DNA of 24,000 nt from Emergencia sp. (GCA_036305845.1 JAXKAR010000015.1:9674-33673); one strand, 5' to 3'. Counted from the stretch's first letter, positions 883-24,000 are shown. Numbers and translations: made by a program. The notes: generated by a model from the sequence alone, not told the origin.

Positions 883-959
883 TGGTGCGCCATGAGGGAC
901 TCGAACCCCCAACCTTCGCATTCGTAGTGCGCGACTCTATCCAATTGAGCTAATAGCGC
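883..959 (-). tRNA. tRNA-Arg (anticodon ACG), CCA encoded
   Basis: I folded the reverse complement by hand: GCGCTAT-TA-GCTC-AATTGGATA-GAGT-C-GCGCA-CTACGAA-TGCGA-AGGTT-GGGGG-TTCGAGT-CCCTC-ATGGCGC-A-CCA. The acceptor stem has 7 bp with one G-U pair. The T-loop is TTCGAGT, the anticodon loop is CT-ACG-AA, and the length is 77 nt. Confidence 0.9.
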
Positions 960-2828: not shown

Positions 2829-4091
2829 ATGAATGCAAAAATTCTTTCGCTTCTGCCAGGCGGAGATTGTTTCGGATGCGGGGGCTGTGGTAAAGCAACC
2901 TGTGCGGAATGTGCTGAAGCAATCGTAGCCGGCGAAAGTGTTGCACTCTGTCCTGCCTGCAATCAGGCGGATGTGGATGCAATCGCAGAGGCATTAGGAA
3001 GAACGACAGAAGAAGCAAAGGACCAGATCGCTTTTGTGGCCTGCAGCGGAAATGCAGCAGGGAAAGCCAGATTTGCCGGATGCAAATCCTGTGAGGAAGC
3101 CGTTGAAATGGGCTTTGTCAAAGGGGAATGTAAGGATGGCTGCGTAGGCTGCGGTTCCTGTGTCGCTTTCTGTAAGTTTGATGCAATGAAAGTGGTTGAC
3201 GGCGATGTGATCATCGATGCAGAAAAGTGCAACGGCTGTGGTGCATGTGCAGCGGCAGAAGCCTGTGTACAGGGTATCATCAAGATGGTGCCTCGTGATG
3301 CAACCAACTTCATCCCATGTTCCAATACAATGGAAGATGACGAAGAAGTCAGAAAGACTTGCGGTTTCGGCTGTATCGCCTGCAGTGACTGTGTAAGAGC
3401 CTGTCCGGAGGGTGCAGTGGAAATCATTGATAACCACGCTGTTATCGACTATGACAAGTGTGTGGGATGCGTTGCATGTACAGTAAAGTGCAAGAAGAAA
3501 ATTATTGTAGATACTATGCACGACCTGACCAAGCTGAAGGAAAAGGTCGCCTTTGTCAAATGTAGCGGAAGCAACGAATTCGCATATAAAGAAGCTGGAT
3601 TTGCAAGCTGTGCGGAAGCTGCTGCAAAAGCTGATCCGAAAGCAATGGGAATCTGTACTACAGGCTGTGCAGGTCAGGGAGACTGTGTAAAGGCTTGCCG
3701 CTACGGTGCTATCGAAGTCGTAAACGGAAGCGCACAGGTAGATCCTGATAAGTGCGTAGGATGTAAGGACTGCTACTACGCATGTCCAAAGAACCTGATC
3801 GAAATGGTTCCTTACAAAGGTGCAAAGATGGTTCCATGCAGTTCTACAGCAGATTATGAAGATAAGGCTGCCGTATGCGGAAGTGCATGTATTGCCTGCG
3901 AAGACTGCTTTGCAAACTGCCCGAACGGCGCAATACATATGGACGAAGCGCACGCAGTGATTGACCCTGAACTTTGTGAAAACTGTCAGGTTTGCCAATA
4001 TATGTGCCAGAGAGGCGTAATTAAGGAAAGAGAAGTTCCTGAATATAACTACTTGCAGAGAGCCGCTCTTGGCATCAGGGAAGGAGAGTGA
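2829..4091 (+). CDS. Soluble RnfB-like polyferredoxin (N-terminal RnfB-type Fe-S domain plus four 2x[4Fe-4S]-type modules)
   Basis: The N-terminus 'LPGGDCFGCGGCGKATCAECAEAI..CPAC' matches the RnfB N-terminal Fe-S domain, but there is no preceding TM helix. It is followed by repeated CxxCxxCxxxC(P) motifs, for example CIACSDCVRACP, CVGCKDCYYACP and CIACEDCFANCP. The 420 aa include 51 Cys by my count from the ORF-track translation. Confidence 0.85.
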   Translation: MNAKILSLLPGGDCFGCGGCGKATCAECAEAIVAGESVALCPACNQADVDAIAEALGRTTEEAKDQIAFVACSGNAAGKARFAGCKSCEEAVEMGFVKGECKDGCVGCGSCVAFCKFDAMKVVDGDVIIDAEKCNGCGACAAAEACVQGIIKMVPRDATNFIPCSNTMEDDEEVRKTCGFGCIACSDCVRACPEGAVEIIDNHAVIDYDKCVGCVACTVKCKKKIIVDTMHDLTKLKEKVAFVKCSGSNEFAYKEAGFASCAEAAAKADPKAMGICTTGCAGQGDCVKACRYGAIEVVNGSAQVDPDKCVGCKDCYYACPKNLIEMVPYKGAKMVPCSSTADYEDKAAVCGSACIACEDCFANCPNGAIHMDEAHAVIDPELCENCQVCQYMCQRGVIKEREVPEYNYLQRAALGIREGE

Positions 4092-4096
4092 TTACG

Positions 4097-7000
4097 GTGA
4101 GAAAATTAAAGACAATGGACGGAAACACGGCTGCAGCTCATGTTGCATACGCATTCTCTGAGGTTGCCGCTATTTACCCAATCACCCCATCCTCACCAAT
4201 GGCAGAGAGTATGGACGAATGGGTGTCCCAGGATAGAACCAATATTTTTGGAGAAAAAGTTAAAATCGTAGAAATGGAATCTGAAGCAGGTGCTGCAGGT
4301 GCTGTACACGGCTCTATTACAGCCGGTTCTTACACCTCCACTTTTACCGCTTCTCAGGGACTTCTCCTGATGATTCCAAACATGTATAAATTAGCAGGTG
4401 AACAGACGCCTACAGTATTCCATGTAGCAGCAAGAGCCCTGGCTACTCATGCGCTTTCCATTTTCGGTGACCATTCCGACGTTATGGGATGCCGTCAGAC
4501 AGGCTTTGCTATGTTAGCGTCTAACAGCGTGCAGCAGTCTATGGACCTTGCGGCAGTAGCTCACCTTGCTACAATCGCAGGCAAGCTGCCTATGCTTCAT
4601 TTCTTCGATGGTTTCAGAACTTCCCACGAAAATCAGAAGATTGAAATCTGGGATTATGAAGACCTGAAAGAAATGGTAGACTGGGATGCAGTAAAGGCAT
4701 TCAAGGCTCGCTCCATCCATCCAATGCATCCACATAGCATGGGTTCTGCAGAGCAGCCTGAGACCTTCTTCCAGCATAGAGAAGCATGCAACAGCGCGTA
4801 TCTGGAGACTGCTGATCTGGTTAACGAATACATGGAAAAGGTTAACGCGAAAATCGGCACAGACTACAAGCCGTTCAACTACTATGGCGCACCTGATGCA
4901 ACAGAAGTGATCGTAGCTATGGGTTCCGTTTGCGACGCAGCAGAGGAACTGGTAGATTACCTGACAGCACAGGGCAAGAAGGTAGGTATCATCGAAGTAC
5001 ATCTTTACAGACCGTTCTCCGTAAAATACCTGCTGAATGTTATGCCTGATACCGTAAAGAAGATTGCTGTTCTCGACAGAACAAAAGAACCGGGCGGTCT
5101 GGGAGAACCTTTATTCCTGGACGTTGTTGCTGCACTGCGCGGCACCAAGTTCGAAAACTGTCTGGTTGTAGGCGGTCGTTACGGACTGGGCTCCAAAGAT
5201 ACTCAGCCGGGAGATATCCTTGCTGTATATCAGAACCTGTGGGCAGACGAACCAAAGAAAGAATTCACCATTTCCATCACGGACGATGTAACCGGTCTGT
5301 CCCTGCCAACAATAGAAAATCCTGATGTTGCTCCTGCAGGCACTAAGGCTTGTAAGTTCTGGGGTCTGGGCGCTGACGGTACAGTTGGTGCAAATAAGAA
5401 CAGCGTAAAGATTATTGGTGACCACACAGATAAGAAGGTTCAGGCGTACTTCCAGTATGACTCCAAGAAATCCGGCGGTGTAACCATTTCCCACCTGAGA
5501 TTTGGAGACGAACCAATCAAGTCTACCTATTATGTAAAACAGGCTGACTTTGTTGCCTGCCATAACTCTGCTTATCTGCAGCGTTACGATATGGTAGAAG
5601 ACGTAAAACCGGGCGGATTCTTCCTGCTGAACTGTGTATGGAGCGACGAAGAATTAGAGGAACATCTTCCTGCAAAGGTTAAGAGATATATTGCAAAGAA
5701 CAATGTACAGTTCTATACCTGCGATGCGGTTTCCATTGCTAAGGAAATCGGTCTGGGCGCAAGAAGAACAAACTCCGTTCTTCAGGCTGCATTCTTTAAA
5801 CTTGCCGACATTATTCCAATCGATGAAGCAGTCGGCTACATGAAGGACGCAATCAAGAAGACTTACGGCAAAAAGGGTGAAGCCATCGTTAATATGAACC
5901 TGGCTGCCGTTGACGCCGGCGTAGCAAATGTACATAAGGTAGATGTACCTGCCGCATGGGCTGACGCACCGGATGATGCACCAGCGCCTAAGATGGTAGG
6001 TCGTGATCAGGTGCATACAGATTATCTGAATAACATTCTGCATCCGACAAATACCTTAACGGGTGATGCAGTTCCGGTTTCTATTTTCCAGGATACTGCC
6101 AACGGTATGATTCCGGCTGGTACAGCTGCTTACGAAAAGAGAGGTATCGCAACAGACATCCCTGTTTGGAATAAAGACAACTGTATGCAGTGTAACTGGT
6201 GTTCCTACGTCTGTCCGCACGGTGTAATCAGACCGTTTGTTATGGATGAAACAGAAGTTTCCGGCGTAAACGGCGATTACCTGAAGATGAAGGGCGTTAA
6301 GGGCAAATTCTTCACTCTGGGCATTTCTGCTCTGGACTGCACAGGCTGCGGCTCTTGCGCACAGGTTTGCCCGGCAAGAAAGAAAGCACTGGAAATCGTT
6401 CCGGCAGAAAACGATGTGGTTCTTCCTGCACAGGAAAAATACGATTACTTATTCGCAAATGTGAACGAAAAAGAAGTTCCATTCAAGGCAAATACAGTCA
6501 AAGGCTCCCAGTTCAAGCAGCCTCTGCTTGAGTTCTCCGGCGCTTGTCCGGGATGTGGAGAGTCTCCATATGCAAAACTGGTTACGCAGCTCTTTGGCGA
6601 AAGAATGTTTATCGCCAATGCAACAGGATGCTCCTCCATTTGGGGCTGTTCCGCACCGAGCACACCTTATACAGTAAACAAAGAAGGCAGAGGTCCGGCT
6701 TGGGCTAACTCCCTCTTCGAAGATAACGCTGAATTTGGTTTGGGTATGGCAATTTCCATGCAGGCAAGAAGAGCTGAACTGAAATCCGCAGTTGAAAGAG
6801 TTGCAGATACAGTAGGTGTTCCGGCAAAGGCATGGTTGGCTTCCATGGATGATGCAGAAGCAGCAGAAGAAACCGGCAAGATTTTGGCAGATGCCTGCGA
6901 AAAGATTGCGGATCAGAATGCTGATGCAAAATATGTAGTAGAAAACAAAGATATGCTGATTAAACCGTCCATGTGGATCTTTGGCGGTGACGGATGGGCA

Positions 7001-7621
7001 TACGATATCGGTTACGGCGGTCTGGACCACGTACTGGCTTCCGGAGAAAACGTAAACGTTATGGTATTCGATACCGAAGTTTACTCCAATACCGGCGGAC
7101 AGTCATCCAAAGCTACGCCTATCGGTGCAGTCGCTAAGTTTGCGGCTTCCGGTAAGAATGTAAAGAAGAAAGACCTGGCACAGATTGCTATGGCTTACGG
7201 ATATGTATATGTAGCACAGATTGCTATGGGTGCAAATCCTGAGCAGACTCTGAAGGCAATCAGAGAAGCTGAGGCTTATGATGGACCTTCCCTGATTATC
7301 GCATATGCGCCTTGTATCAACCAGGGTCTGAAGGTTGGCATGAACAAGGCCATGTTAGAGATGAAGAACGCAGTTCGCGCCGGTTACTGGAACCTGCTTA
7401 GATTCAATCCTGTTCTGGCAGCAGAAGGTAAGAATCCACTTTCCATCGACAGCGGCGAACCAAGCGAAAATTACAGAGACTTCCTGATGAGCGAAGTTCG
7501 TTACAACTCCCTGCAGCTGAAGTTCCCTGAAAGAGCAGAAGAACTGTTCAGAAAGTCCGAAGAAATGGCTATGGACAGATACGCACATCTGCAGAATCAG
7601 AAGAAGAGCTACGATAATTAG
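4097..7621 (+). CDS. nifJ: Pyruvate:ferredoxin (flavodoxin) oxidoreductase, single-polypeptide type
   Basis: The canonical N-terminus 'KTMDGNTAAAHVAYAFSEVAAIYPITPSS' is present. The internal ferredoxin domain shows CMQCNWCSYVCP and CTGCGSCAQVCP. The TPP motif 'GGDGWAYDIGYGGLDHV' is present. The ORF track starts at GTG 4088, only 1 nt from the GGAGA ribosome-binding site (4082-4086). GTG 4097 gives a 10-nt spacing and an MRKLKTMDGN N-terminus, so I prefer it. Confidence 0.96.
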   Translation: MRKLKTMDGNTAAAHVAYAFSEVAAIYPITPSSPMAESMDEWVSQDRTNIFGEKVKIVEMESEAGAAGAVHGSITAGSYTSTFTASQGLLLMIPNMYKLAGEQTPTVFHVAARALATHALSIFGDHSDVMGCRQTGFAMLASNSVQQSMDLAAVAHLATIAGKLPMLHFFDGFRTSHENQKIEIWDYEDLKEMVDWDAVKAFKARSIHPMHPHSMGSAEQPETFFQHREACNSAYLETADLVNEYMEKVNAKIGTDYKPFNYYGAPDATEVIVAMGSVCDAAEELVDYLTAQGKKVGIIEVHLYRPFSVKYLLNVMPDTVKKIAVLDRTKEPGGLGEPLFLDVVAALRGTKFENCLVVGGRYGLGSKDTQPGDILAVYQNLWADEPKKEFTISITDDVTGLSLPTIENPDVAPAGTKACKFWGLGADGTVGANKNSVKIIGDHTDKKVQAYFQYDSKKSGGVTISHLRFGDEPIKSTYYVKQADFVACHNSAYLQRYDMVEDVKPGGFFLLNCVWSDEELEEHLPAKVKRYIAKNNVQFYTCDAVSIAKEIGLGARRTNSVLQAAFFKLADIIPIDEAVGYMKDAIKKTYGKKGEAIVNMNLAAVDAGVANVHKVDVPAAWADAPDDAPAPKMVGRDQVHTDYLNNILHPTNTLTGDAVPVSIFQDTANGMIPAGTAAYEKRGIATDIPVWNKDNCMQCNWCSYVCPHGVIRPFVMDETEVSGVNGDYLKMKGVKGKFFTLGISALDCTGCGSCAQVCPARKKALEIVPAENDVVLPAQEKYDYLFANVNEKEVPFKANTVKGSQFKQPLLEFSGACPGCGESPYAKLVTQLFGERMFIANATGCSSIWGCSAPSTPYTVNKEGRGPAWANSLFEDNAEFGLGMAISMQARRAELKSAVERVADTVGVPAKAWLASMDDAEAAEETGKILADACEKIADQNADAKYVVENKDMLIKPSMWIFGGDGWAYDIGYGGLDHVLASGENVNVMVFDTEVYSNTGGQSSKATPIGAVAKFAASGKNVKKKDLAQIAMAYGYVYVAQIAMGANPEQTLKAIREAEAYDGPSLIIAYAPCINQGLKVGMNKAMLEMKNAVRAGYWNLLRFNPVLAAEGKNPLSIDSGEPSENYRDFLMSEVRYNSLQLKFPERAEELFRKSEEMAMDRYAHLQNQKKSYDN

Positions 7622-10324: not shown

Positions 10325-10993
10325 ATGAAGAAGATTTTAATTGCAGGCTGGGAGACAGCCATTGACAAATATGATGACGATATTGCAGCTTTTGCTAAGT
10401 TGGGATGTAAAGCTTTTCTTTCCCTGCATCCTGAGGATGCGGATGACGTGGATGGTATTGTATTTCCCGGCAGCATGCAGGGGGTAAACCCTAAGCTTTG
10501 GGGCGCAGAGAGCCAGGAAAACTGTGAGCTGAACGATGAGCTGGATAGACTCCAGGGGGTTTTTCTGGAAAAAGCCATAGAGAAACGGATTCCGGTTTTG
10601 GGTATTTGCAGAGGCATGCAGTACATCAATGTCCATCTGGGCGGTACGCTGAATCAGAAGATTCCAAGCTGGCAGATTCATCGGATTACAAAGCCGGAAA
10701 GCTACCACCAGATGCATCCGATGGAGGGAACTTTTATGGAGAGGCTTTTCGGAGAAGAAACGGAAATCAACACCCGCCATTACTGGGCGGTAGAAAACCT
10801 GGGTAAGGGACTTTATCTTACTGCCTTGTGGCATAATCCCGATAGCCGGGAAGAACAGGTTATAGAAGGGTATGCCCACAAGGATTATCCCATCATTGGC
10901 GTCCAGTGGCATCCGGAGAGAATGGTAGTGCATGGAGATCCGGTTCAGCAGGAGAATGGCAAAAAGATGCTGGAATACTGGCTTAGTTTATAA
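10325..10993 (+). CDS. Class-I glutamine amidotransferase-like / peptidase C26 (gamma-glutamyl hydrolase family) protein, paralog 1
   Basis: The nucleophile elbow '[13 protein letters not shown]' and the His motif 'IIGVQWHPE' are present. Confidence 0.85.
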   Translation: MKKILIAGWETAIDKYDDDIAAFAKLGCKAFLSLHPEDADDVDGIVFPGSMQGVNPKLWGAESQENCELNDELDRLQGVFLEKAIEKRIPVLGICRGMQYINVHLGGTLNQKIPSWQIHRITKPESYHQMHPMEGTFMERLFGEETEINTRHYWAVENLGKGLYLTALWHNPDSREEQVIEGYAHKDYPIIGVQWHPERMVVHGDPVQQENGKKMLEYWLSL

Positions 10994-11007
10994 GGAAGGT
11001 GATACCC

Positions 11008-11682
11008 ATGAAAAGAATGATGATCGGCGGTTTTGAAAATGCGGAGAACCGATGTGACAATTATATAGAGGCATTTGCCAAGCTGGGCTGTGAAGCGTTT
11101 GTTTCTTTATCTGTGGAAGATCTTTTACATGCTGACGGACTGATTCTGCCGGGCAGCAGTCAAGATATGAACCCAAAGCTTTGGGGCGCAGAAGATGAAT
11201 GTTCCAATGACATTAACGATGGGTTAGATGCGTCCCAGTGGGCGCTTTTGGATCTGGCGAAAGAAACGAGTAAACCGGTTTTGGGAATATGCCGGGGAAT
11301 GCAGTTTATTAACGTGTATTTTGGCGGTACGTTGATCCAAGATTTAGACTGTGCAGAGTATCATAAAGCCGGCACGCCTGAACGGTATCATCAGCTGGAA
11401 ACTACTGAAGGCGGTTTCATGGAAGAACTCTATGGAAAGACTTGCCTGGTGAATACTCGTCATCACCAGGGGGTGGGACGTCTGGGCGATGGTCTTTCTC
11501 CCGCGGCGTTGTGGATAGATAATCGTCAGCAGGGCGAATCGGTTGTCGAAGCATTTTCCCACAAACAGTATCCGTTTATCGGCGTCCAGTGGCATCCGGA
11601 GAGGATGTTTGTCTGCGAAGAAAGAGAGGTTTCAATGGATGGAGAAAAATTGCTTCGCCATTGGCTTGGAGGTATAAAATGA
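11008..11682 (+). CDS. Class-I glutamine amidotransferase-like / peptidase C26 protein, paralog 2
   Basis: It carries the same motifs ('[13 protein letters not shown]', 'FIGVQWHPE'). By eye it is roughly 40-45% identical to paralog 1 over the full length. I prefer ATG 11008, which has ribosome-binding site AAGGAAGG at 10992-10999, over the track's GTG 10999. Confidence 0.85.
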
Positions 11683-12185
11683 TTAGGATATACAGAGGAG
11701 ATATAACAAAACTTCCGGTGGATGCTATTGTCAATGCAGCGAATCACAGTTTGCTTGGCGGCGGCGGTGTAGATGGAGCAATTCATCGGGCGGCAGGACC
11801 GGAGCTTTTGGCAGCCTGCCGTTTGCTTCACGGTTGTGAGACAGGGGATGCGAAAACGACAGAAGGATATCGGCTTGGTGCTAAGTACGTCATTCATACT
11901 GTAGGACCGGTATGGCAAGGTGGAGACCGGGGCGAAAGAGAAGCCCTTTCCGGCTGTTACCGGCGATCTTTGGAGGAAGCAGAGAAATATGGATGCAAAA
12001 CCGTTGCTTTTCCGGCAATCAGCACCGGGGTTTACGGCTATCCTAAGGAAGAGGCAGCAAAGACCGCATTACAGGCAATTCGTGCATATTTTGCAGCACA
12101 TAACAAGAGCTGTATAGAAGAGGTATTGCTGGTGGCTTTTGATGCGGCCAACGAAGAACTTTATCGAAGCTTGCTGAAGGTATAG
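11679..12185 (+). CDS. Macrodomain protein (MacroD/YmdB-type O-acetyl-ADP-ribose deacetylase / ADP-ribosyl hydrolase)
   Basis: The motifs '[27 protein letters not shown]' and '[13 protein letters not shown]' are present. ATG 11679 overlaps the upstream stop (ATGA) and follows GGAGG at 11668-11672. The track's start at 11589 is an in-frame over-extension into the previous gene. Confidence 0.9.
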
Positions 12186-12322: not shown

Positions 12323-12375
12323 AATCACGTAATCAAGTGAACAATAAAAAGAAAATAAATAAAAGGAGAAGAAAG

Positions 12376-13263
12376 ATGAAAAAGTTAAAGAAAATTTTAG
12401 CCGTAGGTATGGCGCTGGTTCTTATGGGAACAATGTTTACCGCATGTGGTGGTGGAGATGATTCTGCAGAAGGCGGCAGCGCAGCAGGCGGAATCCATGT
12501 TGTAACCCGTGAAGAAGGTTCCGGAACAAGAGGCGCTTTTGTCGAACTGTTCGGTATTGAAGTAAAAGACGATGCCGGTGAAAAAGTTGACCAGACAATC
12601 GAAACTGCAGAAGTAACCAACAGTACTTCCGTTATGATGCAGACTATCGCAGGCAATGAATCCGCAATCGGATATATTTCTCTGGGCTCCCTGGACGATA
12701 CAGTAAAAGCGCTCAAGGTTGACGGCGTTGAAGCTACTGCTGAAAATGTAAAGAGCGGCGACTACAAAGTTTCCAGACCGTTCAATATCGTAACTAAAGC
12801 AGATGTAAGTGAAACGGCTAAAGATTTTGTTTCCTATATCATGAGTGATGAAGGACAGGCTATTGTTGAAGAAGAAGGCTATATCAGTGAAGGCAGTGAA
12901 GGTGCATACGAAGGCGCAGGCGTTTCCGGCGAAATTACAATCAGCGGATCTTCCTCTGTAACACCGGTAATGCAGAAACTGGCAGAAGAATATATGGCAC
13001 TGAACAAAGATGTACAGATCAATGTACAGCAGTCCGATTCCACGACAGGCGTAACTGACGCAATCGAAGGCATCAGCGACATCGGTATGGCTTCCAGAGA
13101 AGTCAGCGAAGAAGAACTGGCACAGGGCGTTGAGGCACAGGCAATCGCACTTGACGGAATCGCAGTTATTGTAAACAACAACAGCACCCTTTCTGAAATC
13201 GCTTCCGAGTCCGTACTGGGTATCTATACCGGAACAATCACTGACTGGGCAGATGTGAAATAA
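12376..13263 (+). CDS. pstS: Phosphate ABC transporter substrate-binding lipoprotein PstS (circularly permuted variant)
   Basis: Ribosome-binding site AAAGGAG (12362-12368) precedes ATG 12376. The signal peptide has a lipobox Cys (MFTAC, TGT at 12445). The phosphate-binding motifs 'REEGSGTR' and 'ISGSSSVTP' are both present, but in reversed order relative to canonical PstS. Confidence 0.9.
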   Translation: MKKLKKILAVGMALVLMGTMFTACGGGDDSAEGGSAAGGIHVVTREEGSGTRGAFVELFGIEVKDDAGEKVDQTIETAEVTNSTSVMMQTIAGNESAIGYISLGSLDDTVKALKVDGVEATAENVKSGDYKVSRPFNIVTKADVSETAKDFVSYIMSDEGQAIVEEEGYISEGSEGAYEGAGVSGEITISGSSSVTPVMQKLAEEYMALNKDVQINVQQSDSTTGVTDAIEGISDIGMASREVSEEELAQGVEAQAIALDGIAVIVNNNSTLSEIASESVLGIYTGTITDWADVK

Positions 13264-15727: not shown

Positions 15728-16389
15728 TGAGAAACAAATTCGACGAACAGCTTGCACTGCTTAATGTGGAGCTGATTAAGATGGGAAGTCTTTGTGAACT
15801 TGCGATTTCCAACGCAATTAAAGGGCTTCTGGATGATAATGACGAGCTGCTCCATCTGGCGGCAGAGACAGATAGTGAAATCGATGAGAAGGAAAGAGAA
15901 ATCGAGAATATGTGTTTCAAACTGCTCCTGCAGCAGCAGCCGGTAGCAAGAGACCTGCGAACGATTTCTGCAGCATTGAAGATGATTTCTGACATGGAGC
16001 GAATCGGTGATCAGGCTTCTGATATTGCAGAAATTGCAGAATTTATCGAAGGGGAGCAGTCCAAGGAACACACACATCTGAAAGCGATGGCTGAGGCGGC
16101 GTCAAAGATGGTGACAGAATCCATTAAGTCCTTTGTAGATAAGGATCTGCAGCTTGCCAATAAAGTTATGGGGGATGATGATGTAGTGGATCATCATTTT
16201 GAGCAAATGAAAGAAGACATCATTGGTTTGATTCGTCAGGGAGAAGCCAGCGCAGAGCTTTCTCTGGATCTGCTCATGATCGCCAAGTATTTGGAACGAA
16301 TCGGTGATCACGCTGTAAACGTGGCTGAGTGGGTAGAATTCTCTATTACCGGTCAGCATATGAGTGAAGAGATGAGAACCAGAATATAA
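15727..16389 (+). CDS. phoU: Phosphate signalling regulator PhoU
   Basis: It has the two-repeat PhoU architecture with 'MERIGDQASDIAE' and 'LERIGDHAVNVAE'. Its start overlaps the pstB stop (TAATG). Confidence 0.93.
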   Translation: MRNKFDEQLALLNVELIKMGSLCELAISNAIKGLLDDNDELLHLAAETDSEIDEKEREIENMCFKLLLQQQPVARDLRTISAALKMISDMERIGDQASDIAEIAEFIEGEQSKEHTHLKAMAEAASKMVTESIKSFVDKDLQLANKVMGDDDVVDHHFEQMKEDIIGLIRQGEASAELSLDLLMIAKYLERIGDHAVNVAEWVEFSITGQHMSEEMRTRI

Positions 16390-16417
16390 AATGCGTTTTG
16401 CAGAAGAAAACATAACA

Positions 16418-16451
16418 GAAAAAGGAGTAGCTTATGCCGACTCCTTTTTCT
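16418..16451. terminator. Bidirectional hairpin terminator between the convergent phoU and nhaC-family genes
   Basis: Perfect 12-bp stem agaaaaaggagt / actcctttttct with a 10-nt loop. The A and T runs lie within the arms. Confidence 0.65.
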
Positions 16452-16494
16452 GTTATAGGTTTATGTTTTAAAAAAGTTACAATATTGTGTGCCT

Positions 16495-18000
16495 TTACGC
16501 AGCAGCTTTTTCTTCCTTGGTCTTCAGTCTTACCTTTGGTTCCTTTGGCAGTCCGAACAGAGGAATGAATCTGTCTGCGCCGGTGAAGGTCAGAAGCAGC
16601 ATGGAAGCAACTGCAATCATAGCCATGAAGTTGTACTTGATGAAGTCTGTGTTTGCGAAGTCGAACAGCGGATATACGTTGGCTGCGATACCTACATAGA
16701 AACCCAGATATACGTGCCATGGAATCAGCTGGGAACCGAATACGCCCATTGCATCTCCGAAAGTTGCGTTTCTCAGCTTAATCTTGTACATGTCTTCTTC
16801 TGTTTCAGCTACGATGTTTTCTTCTGCGATACCCTTGATGATTGGGCCAACAGTTACGATCTGTGCCATTTCGTCAGACAGAATGGCATTACCGGCAAGG
16901 CAGAGAACGCCGTTGCAGGTCATCAGCTGTCTTACGTTTCTGGAAATCTTGACGATCAGGTTTGCCAGCGGGTCAAAGGCCTTCATTGCGCCCATGATGC
17001 CGCCGAATGCAGCAACCCACATCATCATAACGACTACCCAGGATCCTGCGTCAGCAAAACCTGCCATACACATATCCAGGTATTCCTGCAGTCCGCCGGC
17101 TGCGAAGGAAGTTGTTCCTGCAAACAGTCCCAGGATATAAGCGGAAACGATACCGCTGCCGATGCAGGCAAAGGTGTTTACGCCAAGAACTGCTAAAACG
17201 ATAACCAGAATCAGCGGAATAATCATGTAAACAGCAACGCCGTGCTGTACCTGGTTCAGCAGATCGATAGCTTCCGGTCTTTCGCCTGCCAGATAGTCCA
17301 GCGCACTTTGCGGTACGGAATCCATAACGTTGGTTGCAACAACGGATTCACCAGGCAGATCCATAAGGATACCTGCAACGAAGAATGCAATTGCAGCCAG
17401 AATCAGACAGAGAACGGACCAAACGCCCTGACTTCTAATTCTGTCAACAACTTCTACGCCCTGAATACCGGAGGATACGATGGTGGTATCGGAAATCAGA
17501 CCGATATTGTCACCGAAGCATGCGCCGCCGGCGATTGCGCAGGTAGTCAGAAGCAGGCTTCCGGTTTCGATACAGTTCGGGTCAACGATATGTACTAACC
17601 ACAGGAAAATCGGTGCGCATGCAGCGAAGGTTCCCCAGGAAGTACCGGTTGCTACGGACAGAACAGCAGTTACACACAGACCGATAACGGCTGTAGTCTT
17701 TGCTGTTACGCCCAGAGACAGTGCGATGTTTACAACGGAAGCGCCTACGCCAGTAGACATGAATGCGCTTGCCATTGCATAGGCAAACATCAGGATGAAC
17801 AAGGCCACGATAATGTTGCTTACGCTGCTAATGGATGCATCAATACATTCTTTAAATGTAAGCTTTTCGGTAATTTTTGCTACCACTACGGCTACACAGG
17901 CAGCGATAGGCGCAGCAAGCAGTGCGTCTTGTCCGGTCATCATCAAGCCTGCCAGTACGATGATTGGCACGAACTTGAATGCGGCTTTTAGAAAATTCAT
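16495..18000 (-). CDS. NhaC-family (Na+/H+ antiporter-type) membrane transporter; substrate unknown
   Basis: 501-aa polytopic membrane protein whose composition and length fit the NhaC family (for example 'ATGTSWGTFAACAPIF' and 'GACFGDNIGLISDTTIVSS'). A strong ribosome-binding site AAAGGAGAAAG is read on the minus strand at 18004-18014. Confidence 0.75.
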   Translation of the reverse strand: MNFLKAAFKFVPIIVLAGLMMTGQDALLAAPIAACVAVVVAKITEKLTFKECIDASISSVSNIIVALFILMFAYAMASAFMSTGVGASVVNIALSLGVTAKTTAVIGLCVTAVLSVATGTSWGTFAACAPIFLWLVHIVDPNCIETGSLLLTTCAIAGGACFGDNIGLISDTTIVSSGIQGVEVVDRIRSQGVWSVLCLILAAIAFFVAGILMDLPGESVVATNVMDSVPQSALDYLAGERPEAIDLLNQVQHGVAVYMIIPLILVIVLAVLGVNTFACIGSGIVSAYILGLFAGTTSFAAGGLQEYLDMCMAGFADAGSWVVVMMMWVAAFGGIMGAMKAFDPLANLIVKISRNVRQLMTCNGVLCLAGNAILSDEMAQIVTVGPIIKGIAEENIVAETEEDMYKIKLRNATFGDAMGVFGSQLIPWHVYLGFYVGIAANVYPLFDFANTDFIKYNFMAMIAVASMLLLTFTGADRFIPLFGLPKEPKVRLKTKEEKAAA

Positions 18001-18062
18001 TTTTCTTTCTCCTTTACTTAATTGATGATAATTGCTTGGAAATAAAATCCGTAACTATATAA

Positions 18063-18078
18063 AGCAAGCACCGTGCCA
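18063..18078 (-). promoter_or_regulatory. Sigma-54 (-24/-12) promoter of the NhaC-family gene
   Basis: The minus strand reads TGGCAC-GGTGC-TTGCT, an exact match to TGGCAC-N5-TTGCW. It lies 62 nt upstream of the ATG at 18000. Confidence 0.85.
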
Positions 18079-18203
18079 ACTTTGAAAAAAATTTAACAAA
18101 CAAGATAAATAGCGGTAGATGAGCGAAAAATGGGGAATCCGGACAGTGTGAATGAAAGTTGGGATTGAGAAACTCGACATAGATGAACCGAATTTGGTAA
18201 AAG

Positions 18204-18245
18204 ATTGTCAAACTTGTCCCGAAAATGGGTCAAAACTATTGACAT
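18204..18245. promoter_or_regulatory. Candidate enhancer (UAS) for the sigma-54 activator
   Basis: The imperfect palindrome TTGTCCC-N6-GGGTCAA (18214-18233) is nested within TTGTCAA (18205-18211) and TTGACAT (18239-18245). GTCAAAC-type half-sites are repeated. The region lies about 130-170 bp upstream of the sigma-54 promoter. Confidence 0.4.
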
Positions 18246-18267
18246 TTACGCGCTGTAGGAATAGGAT
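18239..18267 (+). promoter_or_regulatory. Candidate sigma-A promoter of the regulator (and the downstream giant gene)
   Basis: TTGACA (18239-18244), a 17-nt spacer, then TAGGAT (18262-18267). A ribosome-binding site AGGAG at 18302-18306 precedes ATG 18313. Confidence 0.45.
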
Positions 18268-18312
18268 GAAAATAAGATGGATTTTAGATGGTTAAGTGAT
18301 TAGGAGAAACCA

Positions 18313-20394
18313 ATGAAGAAATATTATGGTCTGGATAGAGTGCTGGAGCCTAAGGGCATGGTGCCTGCAACAGCATGGAAACTGGATAATGGCAAGAACC
18401 TGGGACCAAAAGAAGTCAGAATTTGTTTGGAGCGCATTCACCTTGAATGGGGGAACTTCCAACAGATTTGTTCCAGCTGTGGTTTTGACGAGGCAAAGAT
18501 GCGGGTTAAAATTATGGATATCATCGAAAAACGGGGAAAACTGCATAATCCGTTTACTGGTTCGGGCGGAGTTCTCATCGGAACAATTGATGAAATACCT
18601 GAGGCGAGCAGAGAAGGGCATGAGCTAAAGGAAGGCGATCGGATTTACTGTATCACTTCACTGAGCTGTATCCCTATATATATAGAAGACATTTTTGAAA
18701 TTGATTTTAACTACGGGCAGATTGTCTGTTCTGGTTATGCGATTCTCTTTGAAGCTTCTCCGGTGTATAGGATGGAAAAAGGGATGCAGCACAACTATAC
18801 TCTGGCAGCCATCGACGAGGCGGGAAGCCTTTTCGGCGCTTACAACATTGCGGTAGAGCATAAGAATCAGAATATTATTGTCATCGGGCGAAAAACTTAT
18901 ACGGTGGCCATGTATGCAGAAGCAGTGAGAGAGGCTACAGGCGCTTCCACCGAGGTGATTGCCATTATGGACAAACATGCTAAAGAAATTCTGACCCAGG
19001 AAGAAATTGAGAAAGCGCTGTCTCCACTGGTGAAAGCGACTTACTTTGTGGATTTAACTGATCCGGTCAATGCGTTCCATGGACTTCTTGCGCAGAATTC
19101 CAAATTGACTATGGCAGATCAGGTTATCGTGGCAGAAAATATTTTTGGTTCAGAGACCCTGGCCGTTATGCTGGTCAAATCCTTTGGTGACCTATATTTT
19201 ACGGCGGTGGAAAATCACTATTCAGAAGCACAGCTGGTGGCCGAATCTATGGGGAAAATTGTGACGATGTATGCTTTCGACCAGTACGTGAAAGACTATC
19301 CTGAGTTTACTATTCGGATCGTCAAAAGTATCAAACCGATACTGGATACGATCAATCATCTGTATATAGAACGAGAAAAGCAGTGGAGGAGAAACGAAAA
19401 TCGGGAAAAGAGTATGATCATAGAAAATGCCGGTAAACTGGATAATTTTGTTTATCAGAGTCAGGTAACCCGAAGTATGGTGGATGAGGTATTGAATATT
19501 GCCAAGTATGACTGTAATGTAATCATACAGGGAGAAACCGGCGTAGGGAAAGAGCGTGTGCTGTCCTTGATTCATCAGAACAGTGAACGATGTGGAAACC
19601 CTTGTATCAAAATAAACTGCGCAACTATTGCAGAAAGTTTGGCCGAATCTGAGTTTTTCGGATATGAAGCAGGCGCATTTACCGGTGCGCAGACAGCCGG
19701 AAAACCGGGATATTTTGAAATGGCCAATAAGGGAATTCTGTTTTTGGATGAAATCGGTACGCTCTCTATGAATATGCAGTCGAAGCTTTTACGGGTGCTG
19801 CAGGAAAATCAGTTCTATCGAGTTGGTGGAACCCATCAGGTATCCGTCAACGTGCGAGTTATCGTAGCGAACAATATTCCACTGAAGGAGCTTGTTGATG
19901 CAGGCAAATTCAGAGAAGACCTTTACTACAGATTGAATATCTGCAAAATTGATGTGCCGCCGCTGCGTGAGAGAAGAGCGGATATCCTTTGCCTGGCTAC
20001 TACTTTTGCGGCAAACTGGGCTAAAAAATACAACATCAGCAAGGAACTGTCTCAGGAAGCATTGGATAGTCTATATGATTATTATTGGCCGGGGAATGTG
20101 CGAGAACTGGAGAATGTGATTCACAGGCTGGTCATCAGCAGTAAGGATGTGGTTATTGGGAAAGAGGATGTGGATGAAATTCTGGGAGAAAATGACTACG
20201 ATAACAAGCTGCTCAATATGAAGAAGCATTTCGACCGTAATGAAAATCTGGATTTCCATCAGCTTATGGATCAGCAAGAAAAACTGATTATCGAATATGC
20301 ACTGAAACAGGAAGGGACTACCAGAAAGGCAGCGGATTTGTTAGGGCTGCCACAGACGACTTTTGCCAGAAAGAAGTTAAAGTACGGGTTATAA
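18313..20394 (+). CDS. Sigma-54-dependent enhancer-binding protein with an N-terminal MDR-dehydrogenase-like (3,5-diaminohexanoate dehydrogenase-like) sensor domain
   Basis: The AAA+ core shows Walker A GETGVGKE (19531-19554), GAFTGA (19672-19689), Walker B 'ILFLDEIG' and 'WPGNVRELEN'. A C-terminal Fis-type HTH 'TTRKAADLLGLPQTTFARKKLKY' is present. The N-terminal ~370 aa ('DRVLEPKGMVPATAWKLDN', 'RGKLHNPFTGSGGVLIGTIDEI', 'LKEGDRIYCITSL') resemble Kdd/MDR enzymes from memory. Confidence 0.92.
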   Translation: MKKYYGLDRVLEPKGMVPATAWKLDNGKNLGPKEVRICLERIHLEWGNFQQICSSCGFDEAKMRVKIMDIIEKRGKLHNPFTGSGGVLIGTIDEIPEASREGHELKEGDRIYCITSLSCIPIYIEDIFEIDFNYGQIVCSGYAILFEASPVYRMEKGMQHNYTLAAIDEAGSLFGAYNIAVEHKNQNIIVIGRKTYTVAMYAEAVREATGASTEVIAIMDKHAKEILTQEEIEKALSPLVKATYFVDLTDPVNAFHGLLAQNSKLTMADQVIVAENIFGSETLAVMLVKSFGDLYFTAVENHYSEAQLVAESMGKIVTMYAFDQYVKDYPEFTIRIVKSIKPILDTINHLYIEREKQWRRNENREKSMIIENAGKLDNFVYQSQVTRSMVDEVLNIAKYDCNVIIQGETGVGKERVLSLIHQNSERCGNPCIKINCATIAESLAESEFFGYEAGAFTGAQTAGKPGYFEMANKGILFLDEIGTLSMNMQSKLLRVLQENQFYRVGGTHQVSVNVRVIVANNIPLKELVDAGKFREDLYYRLNICKIDVPPLRERRADILCLATTFAANWAKKYNISKELSQEALDSLYDYYWPGNVRELENVIHRLVISSKDVVIGKEDVDEILGENDYDNKLLNMKKHFDRNENLDFHQLMDQQEKLIIEYALKQEGTTRKAADLLGLPQTTFARKKLKYGL

Positions 20395-20409
20395 ATGAGG
20401 AACAGTAAG

Positions 20410-23400
20410 ATGCAAGTGTATGAGGAGTTAAGGAATGCCCTGAAGGATAAAGGGTTTCTGAAAGAAATCGGAAAAACGCAGTCTCAGGTGGACACGGAGC
20501 TGATGCAGAATAACGGAAAAGCTTTTAGCCGGGCTCTCTGCGAAAGAGTGGGAGAGGGCGGCAGATTTTCCGTGCAGGATGTAGTGGAAACGGCCAAAGG
20601 ATGGATAAATCTTTTTTTGGATGAACCGGAAAACGGATGGGCAAATCACTGTTACCATTATATTCTGGGACAGATTTTTCCTGAAAAAGGACTGCCGGCA
20701 GATGCGGAAAACTATCGGCAGGGCAGACAGCTTTTACTGCAGATCCTCAGAGGAATTTATGCCTATGAGGCTAAATATCTGCCTTTTGATCCTACCAAAA
20801 ACCTGCAGCTTTTAAGTGACAAGGAGATACTTGAGGGAGGATTTACCCATGAGTATATAAAACTTCATAAATTAGTCAAGCAAAAATATATCTATGAGTT
20901 CATGCGCATAGGTGCGGATATTACGCCGTTTAATACCCTTGGGCATATTGGCGGAGTGCATTATGTAGCGCTGTATATGGCCAGACAGATGGCTGAAGCA
21001 GGGATACCTGTGGACCTGGGACTGGTTTCCGGTGCTGCAGCAGGACATGATATCGGCAAGTATGGCTGTAGAAAAAGTGAAGAGCGGCGGATTCCCTATC
21101 TGCACTATTACTATACGGATATTTGTTACAGCAGATTTGAGATGCCGAACATCGGTCATATTGCAGCAAACCATTCAACATGGGATTTGGAACTTGAGAA
21201 TCTGTCTGCAGAGTCGCTGCTTTTAATCTATGCGGATTTTCGTGTAAAAAGTGCACGTAACGAAATCGGTGAGGAAATCGTTCATTTTTATAGTCTTGAC
21301 GATGCATATCATGTGATTTTGGAGAAGCTGGACAATGTGGATGAGGTTAAACGGCTGCGTTACCAGAAAGTATATAATAAGCTGAAAGACTTTGAATCCT
21401 ACATGAAAGAAAACGGGGTGCAGACTTGTTTGCCGGCAGATTATAGCCAGAAACCGGAAAAGGCGGGAAAAAAGATTCAACGTGAACTTGTGCTGCTCAG
21501 CGGTCAGGATGTGGTTGATCAGTTGAAGTTCAGCGCTGTGGATCATAATATTCGTCTGATGAGTCGTTTTCACAGTGAGAGTGAATTCGGCAGTCTGATT
21601 GAGGCTGCGCGCAGCGAGCGTCAGTGGAAAAATCTGCGTACCTATATCAGCATCTTTGGTGAGTATTCTACTTACATGACAGAGAAACAGAAATTGCTGA
21701 CATTGAAGTTTCTTTACGAACTTTTGGCACATAAAGAAAGTGATATCAGAAACCAGGCAGCGCTGATTATGGGACAGATGATTGCCGGATTCAGCGATGA
21801 ATACAAAAAAGAGGTGCCTGAAGGAACCATGGTGCCGGATCGGATAGTAAATAATCTTACATTATGGGAACAATACCTGGATAAAATTATCATACCGGAT
21901 CACAAAATGACGGAGCAGCACCGAAAGTGGATCTCCAATTGTCTGGATAGAGTAGCAAAAGCCGTCCTTAATCAGTGTAAGGTTTCCTGCAGATACCGAT
22001 ATTTTGATATATTACAAAATTATTATCGAGAAGAAAAGATGTCTAAAGAAACAGTAATGGTTCTTTTGGATACGGCTTGTGTAATTTCGCCGGAAATCTG
22101 TACCAGTGAGTTTTTGCAGAGATTAGGTGCATTTTTGGCTGCTCAACATGGATGTTATGACAAGAGTATTGATATCGCTGTGCTGAAAACGGCCCACCAT
22201 TTTTTTCCGGGTTACAGTGACGACGATTATCGCAAAGATTTGCGAGAAGTCATGGGAATTTCAGGTGATGATACTGTCTTTGATGATAATCTGTCAGTTA
22301 TGTTTTTGGATAATCTGAAGACCGGAACCCCATGGATTCAGAAGGTGACAAATATTGCTTTTATGCTTGATTATGTGGCAGAAGGCAGTGATAAGGGCAA
22401 GATGCTTCATGTGGCAACCCACTTGGCCAATTTGCTGAAGGTCAGTGAGACGTTGACCGTTCGCCGAGCAGCGGGAGAAGGGCTGCTGGAGATTATTGGA
22501 CACATGCCGATGGAGCAGCGAAACGAACTGACGGTGGAACTGTTTAATGGTTTGGAGTTGGGAGACTATCAGTTTTCGAAATATGTACCCGACTATCTTG
22601 GTCTTGTCATGCTATATCTGCCGACTAAGGAGTTGGACGAGTCCGTAGACGAGCTGCAGAAAGTTTTGGAAACCGGAAATGAAAAAGCGGCTACTTCAGT
22701 TATCAATACGCTGGGGGTTATGGTAGAGCATTACGGGCAATATAAAGTAAGATTTTCTGAAGACCCGGCAATTACAGAAAAACGGCGTTTTCGTCTGCTG
22801 AATATGATTCTCAAAGCCTTTGCCAATTTTAATCCGATAGTTTCTCAGGAAGCATTTTGGACGTTGGGTGTACATCTTTTCGGCAGTGAAACCCTTTCCT
22901 TTGAGGAAAAGACAGAGCTGTTTCGTCATTGTTATAAAAAAGTCATGTCTTTACTGCTTGAGAAAAAAGAGGAAGACCTGGACTTTTACAATCATGCGGC
23001 AGTACTCAACCATATTTATCGTTACATTGCAAGATATCAGGTGGAAGAAGGTAATTTTGATCTGAAACCGGTTAAAAAAGTAGCGTTCTTCCCGGGAACG
23101 TTTGATCCGTTCAGTTTGGGTCACAAGGCGGTGGCTACGACCATAAGAAACATGGGATTCGAAGTCTATCTGGCTTTGGATGAGTTTTCCTGGTCAAAGA
23201 ATACCCAGCCTCGACTGCAGCGAAGAAAGATTATGACAATGTCCATCGCAGATGAGGACAACATTTTTGTCTTCCCGGAAGATATTCCGGTCAATATCGC
23301 CAATCCGGCAGATATCCGGCGATTGAAAGAAATTTTTAAGGGAAAAGAACTGTATATTGCCGTAGGAACAGATGTTATCAAAAATGCCTCTTGTTATAAG

Positions 23401-24000
23401 GCTCTGCCCGAAGAAGATTCTATCCATACCCTAAATCATATCGCCTTTGCCAGAGAGTCTAATGAACAGACTGCTTCTGCCGAAAAAGGATATCCGATTA
23501 CTGCACACGTGATTCACCTTACGCTGAAAAAATACTATGAGGATATCAGCTCAACTAAGATCAGAGAAAATATTGATTTGAACAGGGATATTTCTAACCT
23601 TATTGATACGGTTGCCCAGAATTACATTTATGACAGAAACTTGTATTTGCGGGAACCGGCGTACAAGCACATTTTACAGGCAAGGGAAATCAGTATCAGC
23701 CCTTATCGGCACAGGAATTTGGATGAAATGGACGGCATAGAGGAGGAAATGCTGGAGAGGGGCTATGATGTGGAAAAAGTACGCAAGTATCTTGAACGGG
23801 AAGGTGTGAGAAACTTATATGTGGAAAGCGGTATGCGTCACCGGCGTATCAATGCCTTTGCAGCTGCGCACCGTGTAGAAACCGGACAGCTTCTTGCAGA
23901 ATTTGAAGAACCTGCCGTTGCAGCACATATACGTGAAAATGCTTCCGGCAGTATTGCGGTTATCGGCGCATTGTTTACGGCGAAAGGCAAAAGTATTTCC
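20410..24000 (+). CDS. Giant multidomain protein, 3'-truncated by the window (>=1197 aa): HD phosphohydrolase domain, HEAT/ARM-like helical region, NadD/cytidylyltransferase-like domain, further C-terminal region
   Basis: This ORF is not in the supplied track. I translated it by hand line by line and found no stop in frame 1 from 20410 to 24000. Ribosome-binding site GAGGAA lies at 20397-20402; an alternative in-frame ATG lies at 20395. HD motifs are 'GHIGGVH' and 'AAAGHDIGK' (CAT-GAT at 21046-21051). HEAT-like signatures are 'SDIRNQAALIMGQMI' and 'TVRRAAGEGLLEIIG'. Nucleotidyltransferase motifs are 'GTFDPFSLGH' (23095-23124) and 'ISSTKIR' (23545-23565). Confidence 0.85.
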   Translation, partial: MQVYEELRNALKDKGFLKEIGKTQSQVDTELMQNNGKAFSRALCERVGEGGRFSVQDVVETAKGWINLFLDEPENGWANHCYHYILGQIFPEKGLPADAENYRQGRQLLLQILRGIYAYEAKYLPFDPTKNLQLLSDKEILEGGFTHEYIKLHKLVKQKYIYEFMRIGADITPFNTLGHIGGVHYVALYMARQMAEAGIPVDLGLVSGAAAGHDIGKYGCRKSEERRIPYLHYYYTDICYSRFEMPNIGHIAANHSTWDLELENLSAESLLLIYADFRVKSARNEIGEEIVHFYSLDDAYHVILEKLDNVDEVKRLRYQKVYNKLKDFESYMKENGVQTCLPADYSQKPEKAGKKIQRELVLLSGQDVVDQLKFSAVDHNIRLMSRFHSESEFGSLIEAARSERQWKNLRTYISIFGEYSTYMTEKQKLLTLKFLYELLAHKESDIRNQAALIMGQMIAGFSDEYKKEVPEGTMVPDRIVNNLTLWEQYLDKIIIPDHKMTEQHRKWISNCLDRVAKAVLNQCKVSCRYRYFDILQNYYREEKMSKETVMVLLDTACVISPEICTSEFLQRLGAFLAAQHGCYDKSIDIAVLKTAHHFFPGYSDDDYRKDLREVMGISGDDTVFDDNLSVMFLDNLKTGTPWIQKVTNIAFMLDYVAEGSDKGKMLHVATHLANLLKVSETLTVRRAAGEGLLEIIGHMPMEQRNELTVELFNGLELGDYQFSKYVPDYLGLVMLYLPTKELDESVDELQKVLETGNEKAATSVINTLGVMVEHYGQYKVRFSEDPAITEKRRFRLLNMILKAFANFNPIVSQEAFWTLGVHLFGSETLSFEEKTELFRHCYKKVMSLLLEKKEEDLDFYNHAAVLNHIYRYIARYQVEEGNFDLKPVKKVAFFPGTFDPFSLGHKAVATTIRNMGFEVYLALDEFSWSKNTQPRLQRRKIMTMSIADEDNIFVFPEDIPVNIANPADIRRLKEIFKGKELYIAVGTDVIKNASCYKALPEEDSIHTLNHIAFARESNEQTASAEKGYPITAHVIHLTLKKYYEDISSTKIRENIDLNRDISNLIDTVAQNYIYDRNLYLREPAYKHILQAREISISPYRHRNLDEMDGIEEEMLERGYDVEKVRKYLEREGVRNLYVESGMRHRRINAFAAAHRVETGQLLAEFEEPAVAAHIRENASGSIAVIGALFTAKGKSIS

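Follow-up and report, generated by a model that had tools for sequence, protein, structure and literature searches.

A probably composite locus in Emergencia sp.: a sigma-54 regulator with a dehydrogenase-derived sensor and its candidate transporter target in front of a giant-protein operon

Layout of the locus

The DNA analysed here is a 24,000-nt window from Emergencia sp. (GCA_036305845.1 JAXKAR010000015.1:9674-33673), and all positions refer to that whole stretch unless a related locus is named. From position 16495 onward it carries three genes (Table 1): a transporter gene on the minus strand; a divergent gene for a sigma-54 enhancer-binding protein (EBP); and, directly behind the EBP gene, a gene for a giant multidomain protein that runs off the end of the window. 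An earlier note on this DNA had grouped the three as one sensing and metabolic module, in which an imported amino-acid-like metabolite would be sensed by the EBP and acted on by the giant protein. The reading that we find probable, with appreciable room for doubt, is that the locus is composite: an amino-acid-responsive regulator-transporter pair stands in front of a separate giant operon. Related loci are cited by L numbers; with one of these, L169, the sequence covered for the window's own species comes to about 28 kb.

Table 1. Positions of the features at the locus and of the small sigma-54 genes in related loci
Feature	Position	Strand	Basis or remark
NhaC-superfamily transporter gene, 501 aa	16495-18000	-	PF03553, 64 bits (cut-off 23)
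Sigma-54 promoter TGGCACGGTGCTTGCT	18063-18078	-	-24 GG / -12 GC; exact TGGCAC-N5-TTGCT
Third, weaker candidate EBP-site copy	~18119-18136
Candidate EBP site TGAACCGAATTTGG	18184-18197		Inverted pair with the next; the pair lies 106-154 bp upstream of the sigma-54 promoter
Candidate EBP site CCGAAAATGGGTCA	18219-18232		Inverted pair with the previous
Sigma-70-like promoter of the EBP operon	18239-18267	+	TTGACA-17-TAGGAT; consensus match only, 10/12
EBP gene, 693 aa	18313-20394	+	Sigma-54 interaction domain, AAA lid, putative helix-turn-helix (HTH)
EBP sensor domain	18313-19347	+	KDD-like fold, degenerate dinucleotide loop; 7DL3 homology
EBP output part	19453-20394	+	AAA+ 381-546, AAA lid 552-627, HTH 649-693; includes stop TAA 20392-20394
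EBP-giant junction	20395-20409	+	Ribosome-binding site GAGGAA 20398-20403; giant ATG 20410; alternative in-frame ATG 20395
Giant gene, residues 1-1197 of 1589	20410-24000	+	Multidomain open reading frame (ORF); runs off window end
HD phosphohydrolase domain of giant	~20917-21264 (residues ~130-340)		H179, H213-D214, H255, D276
HEAT/ARM-like alpha-solenoid of giant, ~500 aa	21502-23049 (residues 365-880)		AlphaFold model
PPAT/NadD-like nucleotidyltransferase of giant	23062-23664 (residues 885-1085)		PF01467, 46.7 bits (cut-off 21)
GNAT-fold domain of giant	From residue ~1094, continuing past window end		Foldseek
Small sigma-54 genes, ~70-80 aa	L094 19042-19275; L089 12070-12306, 12416-12652; L080 17263-17496; L104 9558-9773, 9307-9516	-
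tRNA gene	886-959	-	Rfam, 57 bits; sole Rfam match in the window

The regulator, its sensor and the divergent transporter

The sigma-54 interaction domain of the EBP scores 211 bits against PF00158 (cut-off 20.2) and the AAA lid 71.8 bits against PF25601, and the translation shows GAFTGA, a Walker A (GETGVGKE) and a Walker B (LFLDEIG). The HTH falls just under the PF18024 cut-off (24.2 against 27 bits), and the alignment to the PrdR model extends to residue 690 of 693; PrdR is also the top NCBIfam match of the output part (328 bits), with the EBP under every equivalog cut-off.

The N-terminal 345 residues are homologous, over their full length, to the solved 3,5-diaminohexanoate dehydrogenase (KDD) 7DL3 (E 8.5e-24, residues 5-338). 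They match PF26370 (KDD_N) and reach 148.2 bits against NF052381, under the KDD equivalog cut-off of 200. The difference lies in the glycine-rich loop, which reads VIGRKTYTVAMY where KDD enzymes have LGAGGTAGLL and 7DL3 has IGANGKSGIL; at the GxGGxxG position itself the sensor has IGRKTYT against GAGGTAG in the enzymes. Judged by this loop the sensor would be a pseudo-dehydrogenase that has lost its NAD(P) loop, much as the earlier note had supposed.

The transporter is, by its profile scores, a member of the NhaC superfamily and not an NhaC equivalog (TIGR00931, 49.6 bits against a cut-off of 370; ArcD, 34 against 650), and its substrate is probably an amino acid. Orthologues of 75-87% identity stand divergent to an orthologous EBP gene in L017, L080, L089, L091, L092, L171, L173 and L174. 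The promoter in front of the transporter lies 62 nt from its ATG and is the single exact match to the sigma-54 consensus in the window; with one mismatch allowed, about one match is expected by chance. The element is kept at the same position in the orthologous loci L017, L080, L089, L091, L092 and L093, and the sigma-54 promoter that the earlier note had placed on the transporter thus proves both exact and conserved.

The divergent intergenic region between the two genes spans 312 bp, and its conserved regulatory elements were read from a by-eye alignment of six orthologous regions. The candidate EBP sites have as their family consensus the palindrome TGACCC-N6-GGGTCA, and the window carries the half-forms TGACCC-N6-GG and CC-N6-GGGTCA. 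Both are kept in position and sequence in L017 and L080, while L089, L091 and L092 give a pattern match at one site each, the other having been read by eye. In front of other sigma-54 promoters, in L080, L094 and L114, the palindrome is perfect. The EBP probably binds at sites of this type, and, with promoter and candidate sites both conserved, the transporter is the likely sigma-54 target of the EBP beside it. The sigma-70-like promoter of the EBP gene lies 6 nt past the second candidate site, and its arrangement, TTGAC(A/T)...TAGGAT/TAGCAT, recurs in most of the orthologous regions.

On the other side of the EBP gene the junction with the giant gene is tight. The 15-nt gap with a ribosome-binding site and without a terminator, on which the earlier note had based co-transcription, was confirmed, with the qualification that the alternative ATG reduces the gap to 0. 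There are no terminator-like sites in 16300-21000 (shuffled sequences gave a mean of 3.8), and the gap ranges from -4 to 21 nt across 13 measured loci, L093 being unreliable in this measurement. Co-transcription of the two genes is therefore likely, as far as such features can tell. A search of the plus strand over 19527-20410 found no internal sigma-70 promoter towards the close of the EBP gene, and neither a sigma-54 promoter nor an EBP site precedes the giant gene in the window or in the related loci scanned. Since the EBP gene sits directly before the giant operon, that operon is probably read from the EBP's sigma-70-like promoter.

The giant protein and its conserved operon

The full length of the giant protein, 1589 residues, is taken from a 100%-identical Emergencia sp. 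record (P0001). The HD, HEAT-like and nucleotidyltransferase parts that the earlier note had recognized find support in conserved residues, a structural model and a Pfam match, respectively. The HD residues H179, H213-D214, H255 and D276 are invariant in 13-16 sequences, with a PF01966 score of just 13.2 bits (cut-off 22). The AlphaFold model of residues 1-880 is all-alpha, the HD region included (pLDDT 86, pTM 0.82), and its solenoid matches PP2A-A, importins, CAND1 and designed armadillo proteins. The nucleotidyltransferase carries the motifs GTFDPFSLGH and ISSTKIR, and S-L-G-H is of the PPAT-like TxGH type and not the HxGH of NadD. Its scores are far under the equivalog cut-offs (NadD TIGR00482, 48 against 112.45; PPAT, 24.6 against 103), which by profile comparison makes it a member of the cytidylyltransferase superfamily and not a NadD equivalog. 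This domain was also the sole match of the giant protein to PDB sequences, searched with a single sequence and two profiles.

The C-terminal model has a pLDDT of 74 and matches GNAT folds at a Foldseek probability of 1.0, with target TM scores of 0.55-0.68; the family consensus KxxSIxN is without the glycines of the acetyl-CoA motif Q/RxxGxG/A. Past the window end the tail contains VILIDDLLHKG, and 8 of 11 family members give a weak PF00156 phosphoribosyltransferase signal. The family is large, with at least 4925 proteins at E<=1e-10 and at least 457 matches among species-representative genomes. At E<=1e-30 it forms about 300 clusters at 50% identity, nearly all of 1550-1650 residues, and the operon occurs in hundreds of anaerobic species, mostly Bacillota. 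Literature searches for this architecture returned nothing relevant and no described function.

The consistent neighbours of the giant gene lie downstream. Co-occurrence was assessed in 80 species loci of the giant gene with 10-kb flanks by tblastn, each denominator being the loci with enough DNA. Genes for an LDH-like protein (~330 aa) and a Cys-rich FMN-reductase-like protein (~350 aa) directly follow the giant gene in 65 of 67 loci; contigs of Megasphaera, Hornefia and Emergencia for which genes have been called show the trio as well. The gene behind the giant gene overlaps it by 4 nt in the window's own species, where L169 gives the order LDH-like, FMN-reductase-like and then an unrelated SurA-like gene. 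The true conserved partners of the giant gene hence sit past the end of the window, where the earlier note could not see them. A KDD-type EBP, by comparison, is found directly upstream in 2 of 63 loci, and a transporter orthologue within 10 kb in 3 of 80, so that co-occurrence across genomes, by which the earlier note had proposed to judge its module, is largely lacking.

In a neighbour-joining tree of giant proteins all EBP-linked loci (named members are Emergencia, Hornefia and Ihubacter) fall in one clade. Nested inside it are members that have no EBP (L010, L045, L002/3/7 and L008), a distribution implying that the EBP dropped out repeatedly and the giant operon stayed; the tree fits a single gain and several losses. 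The converse arrangement is provided by L174 (7421-11506), where a divergent EBP-transporter pair with a sigma-54 promoter (sensor 54%, transporter 75% identity) is followed by folC-folE-HD-folP-folBK and not by the giant operon. Obligate coupling of EBP and giant gene was considered and is ruled out by this locus. Taken with the loci that have the giant operon alone, it means that each pairwise adjacency can exist without the third gene.

Relatives of the regulator elsewhere

When metagenomes were scanned with the sensor domain, 80 loci were obtained and grouped by identity to the window's sensor; in all 80 the relative is an EBP fusion. At 45% identity or above, the giant operon follows the EBP gene wherever downstream DNA is present, and the divergent transporter with its sigma-54 promoter is found in about half of the loci. 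At 35-42%, the divergent sigma-54 promoter drives ORFs of about 70 residues, and a 65%-identical transporter lies about 9 kb off beside rnf genes, with a sigma-54 promoter and palindrome of its own. At 32-36%, the EBP gene stands in front of kdd-kamA-kamDE in most loci, and exact sigma-54 promoters precede both kdd and, divergently, a gene for a 130-aa hotdog (kal-like) protein. Examples of such lysine operons are L087 (9454-21932) and L116-L168, among them L142 (9932-20115).

From this placement the KDD-type EBPs at kdd-kamA-kamDE look like sigma-54 regulators of lysine fermentation. The earlier note had stated that the window holds no lysine-fermentation enzymes and that a Kdd-like sensor is not explained by a neighbouring pathway. 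The absence stands: tblastn of the window with kdd, kamA, kamD, kamE and kce matches the EBP sensor alone. The sensor does find an explanation, in descent, given the place of its family at kdd-kamA-kamDE. Among the close EBP relatives no kam, kdd or kce gene occurs within 10 kb, bar one BKACE-family gene (the family that includes Kce) in Hornefia. That gene, in L004 (21472-22302) and L005 (20021-20851), is flanked by rapZ and whiA; it lies about 6.7 kb past the end of the giant gene, and no sigma-54 promoter is close to it.

In sister species, sigma-54 promoters of the form TGGCACG-N4-TATGCT, with a perfect TGACCC-N6-GGGTCA palindrome ahead of them, drive one or two proteins of about 77 residues just downstream of the giant operon, and their genes are divergent to dsdA, encoding D-serine ammonia-lyase (682 bits, cut-off 246); dsdA itself has a sigma-70-type promoter. 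The small proteins of about 70-80 residues, often encoded as tandem pairs, have no match in Pfam, NCBIfam or PADLOC. L080 has in addition a metallo-beta-lactamase-fold gene (17832-18644, within 17716-18678) between the small sigma-54 gene and dsdA, with perfect copies of the palindrome on either side of it (17716 and 18661). In L035 (3-9398), which belongs to a distant giant lineage and whose contig begins inside the giant gene, the giant operon is followed by dsdA (minus strand) and, divergently, an 81%-identical transporter orthologue (plus strand); the latter is preceded by a sigma-70-like promoter, and the locus shows no EBP.

dsdA is missing from the window and from a further 4 kb of this species, which at this locus also lacks the small genes. 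A dsdA gene just past the window end was looked for in this species, and the position is taken by the SurA-like gene of L169. Literature searches for a KDD-type EBP or a sigma-54 D-serine regulon brought up nothing relevant.

Neighbouring genes

Upstream of the three genes the window encodes an RnfB-like protein, pyruvate:ferredoxin oxidoreductase (PFOR), a GltA-like pair, two glutamine amidotransferases (GATases), a macro-domain protein and pstSCAB-phoU. Within 2829-7621 the gene for the 420-aa RnfB-like polyferredoxin overlaps the start of the 1177-aa PFOR gene by 4 nt (4088-4091), and a sulfide-dehydrogenase/GltA-like pair follows the PFOR gene. Tandem class-I GATase paralogues (Peptidase_C26-like) and then a macro-domain O-acetyl-ADP-ribose deacetylase occupy 10325-12185; the GATase-macro pair again lies upstream of the giant operon in the relatives L002, L171 and L173. 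The PstS-like protein (12337-13263) aligns to its family models in swapped order, residues 193-307 to model positions 34-155 and residues 48-132 to 202-279, and its double PBP_like_2 match is also present in relatives. It may be a circularly permuted phosphate-binding protein, or its start may be mis-set.

Discussion

The composite arrangement that we favour would work as two units. In the regulator-transporter pair, an amino-acid-like ligand would bind the KDD-derived sensor that lacks the NAD(P) loop, the EBP would bind TGACCC-N6-GGGTCA-type sites in the 312-bp divergent region, and its AAA+ domain would then open the sigma-54 promoter of the NhaC-family transporter. The EBP family would descend from regulators at kdd-kamA-kamDE operons, and because of this descent, and because the genes that share its motifs in sister species stand beside dsdA, the signal is most likely D-serine-like or lysine-derived. 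The other unit would be the operon of the giant protein, an LDH-like dehydrogenase and an FMN-reductase-like flavoprotein, usually found without the EBP; in one clade the EBP gene would have come to sit directly before it. Gene content, the promoter, the conserved motifs and the co-occurrence figures are direct observations; binding by the EBP, its ligand, co-transcription and any functional link with the giant operon are all things that we infer from sequence. Of the module proposed in the earlier note, what survives is that the three genes are real and probably share transcripts. They belong to two separable units, the giant gene being usually without EBP or transporter, and the association appears to be largely an effect of synteny; action of the giant protein on the transported metabolite is not supported.

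Several observations weigh against the composite arrangement, and most of them speak for an integrated module: a metabolite brought in by the transporter would be detected by the EBP, and the giant protein and its partners would work on it or on an associated cofactor or protein. All EBP-giant loci that were measured, at sensor identities down to 45%, have a short junction without a terminator, and such conservation might not be expected from pure chance adjacency. The candidate EBP sites lie right beside the probable promoter of the giant operon. EBP-linked genes flank that operon on both sides in several sister species (L080, L089, L171 and L173, with L094 having the downstream genes only), and dsdA and a transporter adjoin it in the distant L035. 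Even so, we think an integrated module unlikely. The giant operon does without the EBP in 61 of 63 loci and without the transporter in 77 of 80; the nested EBP-less branches imply that the EBP has been lost repeatedly and the operon kept; and L174 has EBP and transporter and lacks the giant gene. No locus scanned has a sigma-54 promoter before the giant gene, the synteny is restricted to one clade, where vertical inheritance can explain it, and the positive evidence comes from that clade and a single further locus. Two more points tell against the regulator-transporter half of our reading: Hornefia-type loci retain the EBP and have no sigma-54 target that can be seen within 10 kb, and the step to D-serine is indirect, since the window's own species has neither dsdA nor the small genes at the locus.

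The same sensor homology could be taken more literally, with the EBP still regulating a lysine pathway in response to lysine, beta-lysine or 3,5-diaminohexanoate, the NhaC-family protein importing lysine, and further targets of the EBP among kam and kdd genes at other places in the genome. The full-length KDD homology fits this, as does the clade at 32-36% identity, which is mostly found at kdd-kamA-kamDE with sigma-54 promoters, and NhaC-family genes do belong to sigma-54 amino-acid regulons of Clostridiales (PMC6615313). That identity is at the same time the weak point: the window's sensor is just 32-36% identical to the lysine-operon clade. In addition, close relatives have no kam, kdd or kce gene within 10 kb apart from the BKACE-family gene of Hornefia, and the motif-sharing genes of sister species are neighbours of dsdA. 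We regard continued lysine regulation as improbable. An origin of the giant gene as a defence or conflict system, or as mobile-element cargo that landed beside a regulator, is more improbable by far. It would suit a large multidomain protein that has HD and nucleotidyltransferase domains, both of them frequent in conflict systems, but PADLOC has no match for the giant, LDH-like, FMN-reductase-like or small proteins, and the architecture with its partner genes is fixed in 65 of 67 species. The flanks have the look of housekeeping synteny (gltA-GATase-macro upstream; rpmB-recG and murB-rapZ-whiA nearby), and the composition profile has no obvious discontinuity at the locus.

From its domain set and its redox partners, the giant protein may be concerned with the chemistry of nucleotide cofactors or of modifications. 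One could go further and picture the giant protein with its LDH-like and iron-sulfur-flavoprotein-like partners as an undescribed complex of anaerobic Bacillota that makes, repairs or removes a nucleotide-linked cofactor or modification, and that in the Emergencia/Hornefia clade has been placed under an amino-acid-sensing EBP and so coupled to catabolism of the D-serine or lysine type. Hints of this are that EBP-linked genes stand on either side of the operon and that dsdA and the transporter are neighbours in L035; we hold it as a speculative and rather doubtful extension.

For the composite locus, two lessons follow. The EBP is a clear case of an enzyme turned sensor, a KDD fold minus its cofactor loop fused to a sigma-54 activator. 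Related EBPs look like the regulators, as yet unlisted, that govern the fermentation of lysine to butyrate in gut anaerobes; the family thus offers a testable handle on how the use of lysine, and possibly of D-serine, is switched on. The giant operon is the larger question, being a fixed three-gene unit around a five-domain enzyme of about 1600 residues, and experiments on it are redirected once the LDH-like and FMN-reductase-like genes, and not the regulator or the transporter, are recognized as its true partners. Should the locus be a chance fusion, the regulator would be an ordinary one and the finding would just flag an uncharacterized family.

Comparison with known systems

The closest precedents for the regulator-transporter pair are the sigma-54/EBP amino-acid regulons of Clostridiales: OrdR with ord-ortBA-oraSEF-orr-nhaC, MdeR with mdeA-metT, and PrdR (Nie et al. 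2019, PMC6615313). Like these, the EBP of the window joins a specialised N-terminal sensor to AAA+ and putative HTH domains, and a sigma-54 promoter with upstream sites lies in the adjoining intergenic region, in front of an NhaC-family target. Unlike these, its sensor is KDD-derived, it has one visible target, the transporter, and its gene is joined into an unrelated operon. The words "lysine" and "diaminohexanoate" have 0 occurrences in the text of PMC6615313, and the lysine-operon relatives of the EBP seem to be unreported in that catalogue. Compared with KDD itself (PDB 7DL0, 7DL1, 7DL3 and 7DL7), the sensor is homologous over its full length and related EBP genes lie directly upstream of kdd; it differs in lacking the NAD(P) loop, in its fusion to AAA+ and HTH domains, and in the absence of lysine genes from the window.

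For the sister loci the comparison is with dsdCXA of E. coli, which consists of a LysR regulator, the GntP-family transporter DsdX and the deaminase DsdA. In these loci, too, a genuine DsdA is encoded together with a transporter and a dedicated regulator. The regulator, however, is a sigma-54 EBP, the transporter is NhaC-type and the dsdA promoter sigma-70-like, and the window's own species is without dsdA at the locus.

The giant protein recalls several enzymes in part. It joins a putative HD domain to one of the cytidylyltransferase superfamily with the motifs GTFDPxSxGH and ISSTxxR, for which the comparison is with the NadD-YqeK fusion (PRK07152) and PPAT (CoaD). As in citrate lyase ligase (CitC), which combines a GNAT with a cytidylyltransferase-like domain, a GNAT fold adjoins the nucleotidyltransferase. 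It departs from all three in domain order, in the additional solenoid of about 500 residues and the phosphoribosyltransferase-like tail, and in its fixed LDH-like and FMN-reductase-like partners. GlnD and GlnE are bifunctional modifying enzymes that pair a nucleotidyltransferase with a removal domain. The nucleotidyltransferase of the giant protein is cytidylyltransferase-like, unlike their pol-beta-like one, and what it has in common with them is a resemblance only: the same chain would unite transferase and phosphohydrolase, perhaps with a scaffold for docking.

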